Shown: piece after piece, positions 8,345-29,512 of the stretch | Position numbering within the stretch: the stretch's first letter is position 1 | Layout: each line of letters begins with the position of its first letter | Assembly: GCF_044324875.1 (NCBI RefSeq) | Contig: NZ_CP172185.1 | DNA length: 64,000 bases | DNA from: Escherichia coli | GTDB taxonomy: Bacteria > Pseudomonadota > Gammaproteobacteria > Enterobacterales > Enterobacteriaceae | Direction: 5' to 3' (one strand) | Notes under the pieces: model-generated | Database searches by the model: none | Seen by the model: the letters and a program-made list of their open reading frames with translations, nothing else | What the model was told of the DNA's origin: nothing | Made by a program: the position numbers and the translations under genes

Positions 8345-9285
8345 TCCACGGTTCAGGCCTGTGGGCATGATAAGACGCGTCAGCGTCGCATCAGGCATCT
8401 GCGCACGGTGTCGGATGCGGCGCGAGCGCCTTATCTGACCTACGGTTCAGACCTGTAGGCATGATAAGAGGCACCAGCGTCGCATCAGGCATCTGCGCAC
8501 GGTGTCGGATGCGGCGCGAGCGCCTTATCCGACCTACGGTTCAGGCCTGTAGGCATGATAAGACGCGCCAGCGTCGTATCAGGCATCTGCGCACGGTGTC
8601 GGATGCGGCGCGAGCGCCTTATCCGACCTACGGTTCAGGCCTGTAGGCATGATAAGACGCACCAGCGTCGCATCAGGCATCTGCGCACGGTGTCGGATGC
8701 GGCGCGAGCGCCTTATCCGACCTACGGTTCAGACCTGTAGGCATGATAAGACGCGCCAGCGTCGCATCAGGCATCTGCGCATGGTGTCGGATGCGGCGCG
8801 AGCGCCTTATCCGACCTACGGTTCAGGCCTGTAGGCATGATAAGACGCACCAGCGTCGCATCAGGCATCGGCGCACGGTGTCGGATGCGGCGCGAGCGCC
8901 TTATCCGACCTACGGTTCAGGCCTGTAGGCATGATAAGACGCGCCAGCGTCGTATCAGGCATCTGCGCACGGTGTCGGATGCGGCGCGAGCGCCTTATCC
9001 GACCTACGGTTCAGACCTGTAGGCATGATAAGACGCGCCAGCGTCGCATCAGGCATCGGCGCACGGTGTCGGATGCGGCGCGAGCGCCTTATCCGACCTA
9101 CGGTTCAGGCCTGTAGGCATGATAAGACGCGTCAGCGTCGCATCAGGCATCGGCGCACGGTGTCGGATGCGGCGCGAGCGCCTTATCCGACCTACGGTTC
9201 AGGCCTGTAGGCATGATAAGACGCGTCAGCGTCGCATCAGGCATCGGCGCACGGTGTCGGATGCGCCACACGACGCATCCGACAA
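8345..9285. repeat. Tandem BIME array, about 10 copies of a 94-bp unit, each with two inverted REP palindromes
   Basis: Unit atgataagacgc(g/a)(c/t)cagcgtcgcatcaggcat...tgtcggatgcggcgcgagcgccttatccgacctacggttcag(g/a)cctgtaggc recurs every 94 bp from about 8367 to 9213. Confidence 0.88.
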
Positions 9286-13870: not shown

Positions 13871-13910
13871 ATTGTCCTCGTCATTGTTATCATTTGTAGG
13901 GTCGAGATTG

Positions 13911-14376
13911 TTGTCGGATGCGACGCTATGCGTCTTATCCGACCTACAGTTCAGTTCACCCCGCAGGCCTGATAAGCCGCGTCAGCGTCGCATCAGGCAT
14001 CGGTTGTCGGATGCGACGCCATGCGTCTTATCCGACCTACAGTTCAGTTCACCCCGTAGGCCTGATAAGTCGCGTCAGCGGCGCATCAGGCATCGGTTGT
14101 CGGATGCGACGCCATACGTCTTATCCGACCTACAGTTCAGCACGCCCCGTAGGCCTGATAAGCCGCGTCAGCGGCGCATCAGGCATCGGTTGTCGGATGC
14201 GACGCTATGCGTCTTATCCGACCTACAGTTCAGTTCACCCCGTAGGCCTGATAAGCCGCGTCAGCGGCGCATCAGGCATCGGTTGTCGGATGCGACGCTA
14301 TGCGTCTTATCCGACCTACAGTTCAGTTCATCCCGTAGGCCTGATAAGCCGCGTCAGCGGCGCATCAGGCATCGGT
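13911..14376. repeat. Tandem BIME array, about 5 copies of a 93-bp unit, in prpB-prpC spacer
   Basis: ttgtcggatgcgacgc(t/c)atgcgtcttatccgacctacagttcag...ggcctgataagccgcgtcagcg(t/g)cgcatcaggcatcgg repeated. Confidence 0.85.
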
Positions 14377-14402
14377 TGTCGAATACAACCAACGGGCGTT
14401 TT

Positions 14403-18983: not shown

Positions 18984-19799
18984 CTAAAGAGTGTAGCGGA
19001 TTTTAACGTGCTTATTTACAGGATAATATCTGTCACCTAATTCCTGCACTCTATTCGATATCCATTCGTTTAATCGCGCATCATCTCTGTATGTTTTTAC
19101 GTCCAGAACAGAGAGCAATAACATCACCAGCGATTCAGGAAAAACAGGGTAGATATTTTTTAAGTGTAATAATAATCCATGCGCAAGCGCCTGCTTAATT
19201 GGTGCGTCGCTCTCCGGAATAGACGACATTTCGCGAAGCCATTTTTCCACATGCATACACTCTTTCCCTTTAGGGAAAAGTCTCAGTAAAGGCATATGGT
19301 GTTCAAGAAGAATACATTTGCAATCTGTTCGCACTGAATCGATAAACTGCACTAATTTCTTAAGCCCGGTAAAGCGTCCAGCCTGCACATTTGCTTTAAT
19401 ATCAAGAAACGCATCATCCTGGTCATATACCCAAACTGTCCCTTTTTGATTTTCAAGTATGCGAAAAACAAACTTAACCGGGTAATCAGGGTAATCCATC
19501 CAGTCATAAAATCCCGGGAAATCATTAAACTGTACATTTATGGTAAGTGCGTTATCGTCTGACCACTCACAGTCTCGTACGGCAGCCATGAGATGAATGA
19601 GTTTGTCATCATCGACTAAATCATCACGACAATCATAAGGATAATCATAATATTGTTTAATCAAAACCTTGAATATATCGACACAGGAAACCAGGGAGCT
19701 TTTGATATCCTCCGGTAACTGATTGTTTTTAACCGTATTAAGTATGCTTTGTTGCGTATATGGCATCAAATTATTGTACGGAGCTTTTAATGATATCAT
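18984..19799 (-). CDS. yahL: uncharacterised protein, 271 aa
   Basis: ORF in expected position; sequence recognised as YahL. Confidence 0.8.
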   Translation of the reverse strand: MISLKAPYNNLMPYTQQSILNTVKNNQLPEDIKSSLVSCVDIFKVLIKQYYDYPYDCRDDLVDDDKLIHLMAAVRDCEWSDDNALTINVQFNDFPGFYDWMDYPDYPVKFVFRILENQKGTVWVYDQDDAFLDIKANVQAGRFTGLKKLVQFIDSVRTDCKCILLEHHMPLLRLFPKGKECMHVEKWLREMSSIPESDAPIKQALAHGLLLHLKNIYPVFPESLVMLLLSVLDVKTYRDDARLNEWISNRVQELGDRYYPVNKHVKIRYTL

Positions 19800-19968
19800 C
19801 GCGATCTCTCTTAAATAAAAATAAACGTCGCAGATAATAAAGCCCTGATTAAACCAGGCACTATCAGAAATCGCTCATAACTAACGTATGAAGTATTGTG
19901 TCCTGGAGGGAGTTAATTTAACAATTTGAATTTACGTTATAGGTTTTACCGCTACTTTGATATTATTT

Positions 19969-20002
19969 CGCTCTCCTTAACTAAAAAGTTAAGTGGAGAG
20001 CG
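19969..20002. other. 34-bp near-perfect palindrome cgctctccttaac-taaaaa-gttaagtggagagcg, 40 bp downstream of yahK stop
   Basis: Seen in sequence; no flanking T-run on either strand. Confidence 0.5.
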
Positions 20003-20041
20003 AAGTTAATATGTTAAACCACAGGGTATTTATTAATTGTT

Positions 20042-21091
20042 TCAGTCTGTTAGTGTGCGATTATCGATAACAAAACGATATTTCACATCTCCTCGCAGCA
20101 TTCGCTCATAGGCTTCATTAATTTGATCGGCCCGAATCATCTCTATATCAGCCACGATGCCATGTTCGGCGCAAAAATCGAGCATCTCCTGTGTTTCTGG
20201 AATGCCGCCAATCATAGAGCCGGCTATCGCGCGGCGTTTCATGATCAGGTTGAAAACTTCCGGCGATTTATGCGGTGTCGCAGGCGCACCAACCAGCGTC
20301 ATGGTGCCATCGCGCTTCAGCAAGGTGGTAAAATCGTCGAGATTATGTGGCGCAGCTACTGTATTCAAAATGAAATCGAAACTCTTCAGATGAGCCGCCA
20401 TCTCATCGGCATTGCGTGAGTTAACAACTTCATCGGCCCCCAGGGCTTTTGCCGCTTCGCGTTTTGCCTCAGAAGTGGTAAATGCCACCACATGTGCCCC
20501 CATCGCGTGGGCCAGCTTAATCCCCATATGTCCCAGACCGCCGATGCCAACCACGCCCACTTTTTTACCCGGCCCGGCCTGCCAGTGACGTAGCGGCGAG
20601 TATGTGGTGATCCCTGCACACAATAAAGGAGCCACCGCCGCCAGCTGCTCTTGCGGGTGACGAATACGCAGAACATATCGCTCATGAACGACGATCTGTT
20701 GTGAGTAGCCGCCCAGCGTATGGCCCGGTTCGTCCGGCGTCGGCGAGTTATAGGTGCCGGTCATGTGATCACAGTAGTTTTCCAGCCCGTCTTCACACTC
20801 TTCGCAATGTTTACAACTGTCGACAATACAGCCGACACCGACCAGATCGCCCGTCGCATGTTTTTCTACCTGATCACCAACGGCTACCACACGCCCCACA
20901 ATTTCATGACCCGGCACGCAGGGGTAAACCGTCCCCGCCCACTCGGAACGGACCTGGTGGATATCGGAATGGCAGACGCCACAGTAAGCGATTTCAATTT
21001 TGACATCATGCGGTCCCGGTTCACGCCTGGTAATATCCATCGGTTCCAGCGGTTGCGTCGCGGAATAAGCACCAATAGCCTTGATATTCAT
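20042..21091 (-). CDS. yahK: NADPH-dependent aldehyde reductase (zinc alcohol dehydrogenase family), 349 aa (start MNIKAIGAYS)
   Basis: GHEIVG and CGVCHSD zinc-ADH motifs; recognised as YahK. Confidence 0.9.
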   Translation of the reverse strand: MNIKAIGAYSATQPLEPMDITRREPGPHDVKIEIAYCGVCHSDIHQVRSEWAGTVYPCVPGHEIVGRVVAVGDQVEKHATGDLVGVGCIVDSCKHCEECEDGLENYCDHMTGTYNSPTPDEPGHTLGGYSQQIVVHERYVLRIRHPQEQLAAVAPLLCAGITTYSPLRHWQAGPGKKVGVVGIGGLGHMGIKLAHAMGAHVVAFTTSEAKREAAKALGADEVVNSRNADEMAAHLKSFDFILNTVAAPHNLDDFTTLLKRDGTMTLVGAPATPHKSPEVFNLIMKRRAIAGSMIGGIPETQEMLDFCAEHGIVADIEMIRADQINEAYERMLRGDVKYRFVIDNRTLTD

Positions 21092-21362: not shown

Positions 21363-22010
21363 TTACCCCGCAAAAGAAACACGCAATAACTTTAACTGCC
21401 CGTTAATCATGCCAAATTCCAGTATAGTTGTGCCATCACAAACAGCCGGTGGAATTTGTTCATTAGCCTGCGAACCAATATTCAGCGTAATGCCATCGTC
21501 AGAAATATTCCCCGACATCGCCAGTTCACATATTCCCGTGACGTAGTGGCGCTCCCCTTTCTCTTCGTAATAGAAACGTCCATCATTGAGGGGATAATAT
21601 TTTCTTTTTTGCTCCGCTGGCGTCAGCGAATGACTGAGATAATCATCAATCCATTGGGTACCCGGATGTATCGTGAATTTTGTGACATTATGCAGACGCC
21701 GCATAATGGTTTCTGAATGGCGATCAAATAGTGCTTCTGTGAAGGGTTCAGATTCAGGCAACTCAATCTCAGCGAGAAAGCCGAAATAGGTATCGTAGGG
21801 GAATTTTAAGAAGGTTTTTAGTTTCGTGGCATTCTTTGCACTCAGCGCTTGCTGAAACTTTTGCAATTGCGTTAAGGCATCTTTTTTCTGCTCCGGCGTG
21901 ACCAGGGGCTGTATGCGCACCGCCTCGCATTCGTGTTGTGAATTTCCAGCAGGGCAAGTTGCCAGGACGGCCTGACTCAGAAACAACAGCGATAACCAAA
22001 GAAATTTCAC
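21363..22010 (-). CDS. hypothetical secreted protein, 215 aa, with N-terminal signal peptide
   Basis: ORF with signal peptide MKFLWLSLLFLSQAVLA and GGA-rich RBS region; not recognised as a named K-12 protein. Confidence 0.5.
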   Translation of the reverse strand: MKFLWLSLLFLSQAVLATCPAGNSQHECEAVRIQPLVTPEQKKDALTQLQKFQQALSAKNATKLKTFLKFPYDTYFGFLAEIELPESEPFTEALFDRHSETIMRRLHNVTKFTIHPGTQWIDDYLSHSLTPAEQKRKYYPLNDGRFYYEEKGERHYVTGICELAMSGNISDDGITLNIGSQANEQIPPAVCDGTTILEFGMINGQLKLLRVSFAG

Positions 22011-29270: not shown

Positions 29271-29512
29271 TAAACAGCATTCTGATAGAGAGTGCCTGTA
29301 TAAAGCTGAAGTGACAATGACCGGGAAGGGAACCCGTTTTCAGGAATGGATGCCTGTCTTTTTCACTGTAAATATCCTGGCATTACTAATGCCAGGATAT
29401 TTACAGAAGAGCAGCATAACCATGACGGAACGGGGTTAAGTCAGGTTGTCCTTAACGCTATTCACAACCTCGTATGCCGACTTCAGGTTTATGTCCAGAC
29501 TTCATATCTCTC

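Follow-up and report, generated by a model that had tools for sequence, protein, structure and literature searches.

A stem-loop without a U-tract as the probable determinant of the yahK mRNA 3′ end in Escherichia coli

Intrinsic terminators usually release the transcript about 7-9 nt from the stem of their hairpin. Another route to a defined mRNA end is linked to Rho, and the hypothesis behind the 3′-terminal protective stem-loops of Rho-dependent transcripts reportedly goes back to Peters et al. in 2012. Genome-wide, Rho-dependent transcripts of E. coli have their ends directly behind stable stem-loops without U-rich tails (Dar & Sorek 2018, NAR, PMC6061677). These ends arise through PNPase- and RNase II-dependent trimming of longer primary transcripts, and C is enriched over G just downstream of them (PMC6061677). 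A related group of elements is formed by the REP/BIME palindromes, which block 3′-to-5′ exonucleases and are often associated with Rho-terminated genes (PMC6061677).

The palindrome described here lies between yahK and yahL and is most likely a further example of this well-described class, its 3′ end already standing in a public table, unremarked, as an ‘orphan’. Like the members of the Dar & Sorek class, it is a stable stem-loop in a 3′ UTR that lacks a U-rich tail, is directly followed by a precise 3′ end, and has next to it, on the downstream side, a C-over-G tract and a region published as bicyclomycin-sensitive. It differs from them in its weak Rho signal and in an unusually symmetric stem, whose pairs are all Watson-Crick and which is prolonged by A-U pairs. 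The locus resembles the REP/BIME stabilisers of mRNA 3′ ends (e.g. malE-malF) in being an extragenic palindrome. In contrast to them, it occurs as a single copy, bears no resemblance to the REP consensus and has an AT-rich stem top.

The reading preferred here, with a probability of about two in three, is that the palindrome acts as a U-less stem-loop in the yahK 3′ UTR, setting and protecting the steady-state 3′ end of the yahK mRNA. It builds on a structure, a single-copy conservation, 3′ ends at the base of the stem, a bicyclomycin-sensitive region and a C-rich tract that were observed in this analysis or have been published.

Position and fold of the palindrome

The window, the whole 64,000-nt stretch of DNA that was analysed, is from E. 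coli and is inverted relative to the K-12 map. Its segment 19800-20100 matches strain 042 and several further strains at 100% identity, and 5113 of 5426 complete E. coli genomes contain it. In RefSeq, the spacer between yahK and yahL carries no annotation in either strain 042 or K-12. The features that frame the palindrome are the following:

20042-21091, minus strand: yahK, encoding an NADPH-dependent aldehyde reductase of 349 aa (annotated in RefSeq for K-12 and for the identical region of strain 042)
20005-20041, minus strand: yahK 3′ UTR between the stop codon and the hairpin, 37 nt
19967-20004, minus strand: core hairpin in the yahK 3′ UTR, identical in K-12 at 343971-344008
19960-20010, minus strand: extended hairpin with an outer stem of 6 A-U pairs (AUAUUA / UAAUAU), minimum-free-energy fold -22.9 kcal/mol
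18984-19799, minus strand: yahL, the next gene on the same strand, AT-rich

A preliminary description of this DNA had placed a 34-bp palindrome at 19969-20002, downstream of yahK. The sequence CGCTCTCCTTAACTAAAAAGTTAAGTGGAGAGCG was found there, between the two genes as listed. The 13 paired bases given for each arm also held. The arms are not uninterrupted, however, as a 2-nt bulge had gone unmentioned, and the loop is not TAAAAA: pairing runs 1 bp further inward, leaving a loop of AAAA, and 2 bp further outward (TT/AA), to give 10 + 6 bp. With this outward pairing the core palindrome spans 19967-20004 and reads TTCGCTCTCC TTAACT AAAA AGTTAA GT GGAGAGCGAA on the plus strand. The stop codon of yahK ends at 20042, and the yahK transcript carries the hairpin, which begins 38 nt after that stop codon; its end is 168 nt short of the start codon of yahL. 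In the sense RNA the core hairpin is UUCGCUCUCC-AC-UUAACU-UUUU-AGUUAA-GGAGAGCGAA, composed of a GC-rich lower stem of 10 bp, the 2-nt bulge (GT on the plus strand, AC on the yahK-sense strand), an upper stem of 6 bp and a 4-nt loop.

As RNA, the palindrome folds at -25.0 kcal/mol on the plus strand and at -22.9 kcal/mol on the minus (yahK-sense) strand. Dinucleotide shuffles gave -8.1 and -4.8, respectively, which places the palindrome at z values of -7.1 and -8.6, a fold that none of the 200 shuffles matched. The window has 11 places with perfect inverted repeats of 10 bp or more and loops of 3-20 nt, whereas random sequence with matching dinucleotide composition would be expected to give 1.1, and the palindrome exceeds chance expectation. 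Its absolute folding energy is unexceptional in the window because GC-rich coding sequence folds equally strongly, 3% of the 60-nt windows in this stretch reaching -22.9 kcal/mol. The signal of the palindrome is its contrast with the local composition (the yahK-yahL spacer has about 35% G+C) together with its near-perfect symmetry. All its pairs are Watson-Crick and the hairpin of the antisense strand is equally good; the sequence alone therefore fits selection on either strand, as DNA or as RNA.

Two translational readings of the palindrome were set aside. A 19-codon open reading frame on the plus strand, antisense to the end of yahK (GGAG, 12 nt, then ATG at 20011), was rejected because an extra T in the S10EC allele described below shifts its frame. 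The Shine-Dalgarno-like AAGGAGAG in the 3′ arm of the sense strand has no start codon after it.

RNA 3′ ends and Rho between yahK and yahL

K-12 is identical to the window across the element, and K-12 RNA data therefore apply to it, the K-12 coordinate being 343933 + (20042 - window position). For LB at OD 2.0 the curated Term-seq data have an RNA 3′ end at 344013(+), and for M63 glucose one at 344011(+) (Adams et al. 2021, eLife, supplementary file 1, PMC7815308). These ends lie 5 and 3 nt past the core stem, respectively, within the 3′ strand of the outer A-U stem. RNA 3′ ends around yahK had been named in the preliminary description as the place to look, and yahK-sense ends that adjoin the stem are indeed seen in two growth conditions (PMC7815308). 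The printed flank runs ...UUCGCUCUCCACUUAACUUUUUAGUUAAGGAGAGCGAAAUAAU up to the end and AUCAAAG beyond it; on the yahK-sense strand it is also given as ...GGAGAGCGAAAUAAU, again followed by AUCAAAG (PMC7815308). For the opposite strand at the palindrome the same tables list no 3′ end, and the ends at 344011 and 344013 are classed as ‘orphan’ solely because their distance downstream of the stop codon exceeds 50 nt (PMC7815308). Further on, in the direction of yahL, a Rho termination region has its best coordinate at 344049(+), equivalent to 19926 in the window (Adams et al. 2021, supplementary file 2, PMC7815308). Two features are thereby added to those above:

19962-19964, minus strand: equivalents of the K-12 3′ ends, placed by the flanking sequence in PMC7815308 and by coordinate mapping
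19890-19935, minus strand: C-rich, G-poor tract UUAACUCCCUCCAGGACACAAUACUUCAUAC, a candidate Rho loading (rut) region that contains 19926

The Rho region has a Rho score of 3.61 and a p value of 1.8e-5 (PMC7815308). These figures rest on low counts in 800-nt windows, with 32 reads upstream and 24 downstream in cultures without bicyclomycin and 83 and 225 in cultures with it (PMC7815308). With the drug, downstream reads exceed upstream reads, and de-silenced promoters in the AT-rich yahL may therefore supply part of the signal. According to the authors of that study, Rho coordinates of this kind are closer to processed 3′ ends than to true termination sites (PMC7815308). The 3′ ends themselves carry no Rho score because the growth conditions differ, the Rho data coming from LB at OD 0.5 and the 3′ ends from LB at OD 2.0 and from M63 (PMC7815308). 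In the sense direction, from 19935 to 19890, the C/G ratio is 2.6-3.0 in 40-nt windows.

In the mechanism favoured here, RNA polymerase would first transcribe through the hairpin. Rho would then load on the unstructured, C-rich and G-poor tract 40-90 nt further on and terminate diffusely before or within the AT-rich yahL. Finally, the 3′-to-5′ exonucleases PNPase and RNase II would trim the tail and come to a halt a few nucleotides short of the GC-rich lower stem. The yahK mRNA would in this way acquire a defined and stabilised end, and transcription would seldom continue into yahL, which the termination region is proposed to shield. The hairpin would act in stabilising the yahK mRNA. Clear termination at the site had been named in the preliminary description as an outcome that would count against its own suggestion. 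RNA ends do accumulate there, and their most likely origin is trimming as far as the hairpin rather than release at it. The suggestion of an RNA processing element rather than a terminator, made in that description, is the better label, since the yahK transcript ends 3-5 nt beyond the stem with a Rho-sensitive region just downstream.

The hairpin could also be a weak, non-canonical intrinsic terminator which, perhaps with NusA or NusG, releases the polymerase within a few nucleotides in spite of the poor U-tract and leaves to Rho only a back-up role on read-through. This is an unlikely reading, although several features of the locus agree with it. As in a canonical intrinsic terminator, a GC-rich hairpin follows the stop codon at short distance, with precise 3′ ends right behind it. 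On the sense strand, 3 of the 8 nt that follow the stem (AUAAUAUC) are U. The yahK orthologues of Enterobacter sp. BIGb0383 and Salmonella bongori have downstream hairpins with U-rich tails in the same relative place, and intermediate cases that combine inefficient hairpin termination with Rho have been discussed (Dar & Sorek, PMC6061677). Against this reading, the absence of terminator features in the preliminary description was borne out: a consensus terminator scan gave no match at the site, and no U-tract follows the stem on either strand. On the other strand the stem is followed by GUUAAUAU, and neither strand has the roughly 7-8 U-rich residues of a canonical terminator. In contrast to such a terminator, the yahK hairpin has neither a U run nor an upstream A-tract. 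The 3′ ends, only 3-5 nt from the stable stem, are nearer to it than is usual, and the bicyclomycin-sensitive region that follows immediately downstream argues against full Rho independence.

Cleavage by RNase III, a double-strand-specific endonuclease, is a very unlikely source of these ends. The enzyme would cut an interrupted helix of about 22 bp and so separate yahK from the downstream RNA. A suitable length is reached in the common allele when the outer A-U pairs are counted, provided that the bulge and a single unpaired step are allowed for, and both of these shorten the continuous helix; in the perfect allele (see below) the helix is 23 bp with a single bulge. The mapped 3′ ends do fall within the outer helix, but ends 3-5 nt from the stable stem are equally expected from exonuclease stalling.

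Other signals were noted along the same transcript direction. A small hairpin, CCTGGTTTAATCAGG followed by GCTTTATTAT, lies on the minus strand at 19844-19858, some 45 nt upstream of the yahL start. The yahK-yahL spacer has no other terminator-like consensus match, and at this hairpin no published 3′ end is listed. Further downstream, 345390(+) was reported as an RNA 3′ end, and yahM was reported to have a strong Rho termination region at 345585(+), with a Rho score of 6.2 (Adams et al. 2021). From these two signals the whole yahL-yahM segment appears to be Rho-controlled.

Conservation and natural alleles

Multiple genomic copies, which would have marked the element as a known repeat family, had been named in the preliminary description as evidence against its view. 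The window, searched at up to 3 mismatches, contains one copy. Of 5426 complete E. coli genomes, 5088 (~94%) carry the palindrome, with a median of a single place per genome; where a genome shows a second ‘place’, this is the palindrome matching itself on the opposite strand. No Rfam family reaches its threshold for the palindrome; the best matches are eukaryotic microRNA precursor models at less than half of the gathering score, and are generic hairpin matches. A dispersed repeat family was accordingly rejected.

Among the 80 loci listed from a scan of genome contigs with YahK, which include no Escherichia, none shares the yahK-yahL intergenic sequence. The nearest non-E. coli YahK proteins, at 86-91% identity, are found in unrelated gene contexts and are followed by unrelated hairpins; the two looked at in detail, in Enterobacter sp. 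BIGb0383 and Salmonella bongori, are those with the U-rich tails noted above. As a separate observation, YahK is 78-85% identical to proteins of Pseudomonas, Bordetella-like Betaproteobacteria, Paracoccus and Microvirga among the matches listed. Identity this high across classes is unusual and suggests, as far as protein comparison goes, a recent horizontal spread of the aldehyde reductase gene.

Within E. coli, three natural alleles of the palindrome were distinguished, with shares estimated from identity bands and evenly spaced rows of E. coli genome matches:

Allele of the window, K-12 and 042, ~78% of genomes: right arm (plus strand) AGTTAAGTGGAGAGCG, 2-nt bulge, sense-strand fold -22.9 kcal/mol
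Allele of SF-088 and CFT073, ~14% of genomes: right arm (plus strand) AGTTAAGTGGAGCG, 2x2 internal loop, sense-strand fold -21.2 kcal/mol
Allele of S10EC, ~8% of genomes: right arm (plus strand) AGTTAAGGAGAGCGAAA, perfect 17-bp palindrome, sense-strand fold -30.2 kcal/mol

All differences among the three alleles fall at the imperfection of the stem (the bulge) or at the first flanking pair, and a stable sense-strand hairpin is kept in each. This pattern could be explained by selection for stem stability and also by hairpin-templated mutation, and it fits importance of either strand. The carriers of the two minority alleles are B2-type strains that lack yahL and keep the whole yahK-yahL spacer; yahL is absent from the four B2-type strains examined.

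In the B2-type strains SF-088, S10EC and CFT073 an 11-nt deletion affects the C-rich tract (window 19888-19912). These same strains have lost the whole of yahL, the boundary of that deletion falling immediately upstream of its start codon. The candidate rut is therefore altered in exactly those examined strains that have no yahL to shield. In one genome, NZ_CP102947.1, an IS1 element sits in the loop/right arm of the palindrome; yahK and the sequence beyond it are deleted, and the junction runs into a truncated hyxB.

The hairpin and the Rho region might together form a regulated gate into yahL-xtpA-yahM, or the Watson-Crick symmetry might reflect a putative DNA-binding protein; little probability is given to this pair of ideas. 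If a gate existed, altered Rho activity, translation at the end of yahK or a factor that binds the stem would lead to read-through into yahL-xtpA-yahM, an E. coli-specific segment that would otherwise be silent. The bulged, internal-loop and perfect alleles would then tune the gate. Under the preferred reading of a protective stem-loop, yahK gains a defined 3′ UTR of 80 nt and an unannotated intergenic palindrome gains a mechanistic label, with little import beyond annotation. A U-less hairpin after a gene would, by the same reading, be taken first as a Rho-associated protective stem-loop.

DNA-level explanations and neighbouring elements

A role for the palindrome as DNA is highly improbable. 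It might be the operator of a putative dimeric regulator of yahL (TTAACT-N4-AGTTAA), or a relic of recombination or of a mobile element at the border between yahK and yahL-yahM. The wholly Watson-Crick pairing and the perfect 17-bp palindrome in one allele fit such a site, as does the position 168 bp upstream of yahL, where the G+C content drops. The palindrome is, however, single-copy, with no repeat-family or Rfam match, and it is kept in B2 strains that have no yahL. Neither annotation nor reported binding was found at its position. An RNA polymerase genomic SELEX peak (minor sigma factors) is located inside yahL, off the palindrome, and CRP, which is no more than a predicted regulator of yahL, has no matching motif at the palindrome. 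The RNA 3′ ends, moreover, are already explained by the RNA model.

The GTTAAGT of the right arm fits the core motif of integron attC sites, GTTRRRY. In attC, RYYYAAC and GTTRRRY boxes form the base of a structured site of ~57 bp or longer with extrahelical bases. In the palindrome the TTAAC and GTTAA motifs are loop-proximal and 6 nt apart instead of at the base, and the whole element measures 38-51 nt, less than attC sites are known to measure; an attC site was rejected. The Reg-Seq lead was also dropped, since the paper merely names yahL among its targets.

Several genes and repeats of the surrounding region are of note for annotation. Between yahJ and yahK, the minus strand of the window carries a hypothetical gene of 215 aa at 21363-22010, which is also present in strain 042. 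It is unannotated in K-12, where the gap between yahJ and yahK is only 376 bp. The small RefSeq gene xtpA (b4845, ‘putative transcriptional regulator’) occupies 345252-345434 in K-12 and overlaps the start of yahM.

The window also contains two tandem arrays. The first, at 8348-9265 in the prpE-codB spacer, has a period of 94 nt and 9.8 copies with 96% matches. The second, at 13910-14381 in the prpB-prpC spacer, has a period of 93 nt and 5.1 copies, likewise with 96% matches. The array consensus has REP-like palindromes (GCCTGATAAGACGCG...CGTCGCATCAGGC) and the units are strongly hairpin-forming, which identifies the arrays as BIME/REP clusters. The annotation of strain 042 has a 540-nt ‘hypothetical protein’, EC042_RS29940, spanning the prpB-prpC spacer to which the second array maps; this may be a spurious ORF.

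A further palindrome is found at 29364-29408, where perfect arms of 19 bp enclose a 3-nt loop (CTGTAAATATCCTGGCATT ACT AATGCCAGGATATTTACAG) directly after a T-rich stretch. This stretch coincides with a very abundant ‘orphan’ 3′ end at K-12 324603 on the minus strand, represented by ~126,000 reads (PMC7815308).
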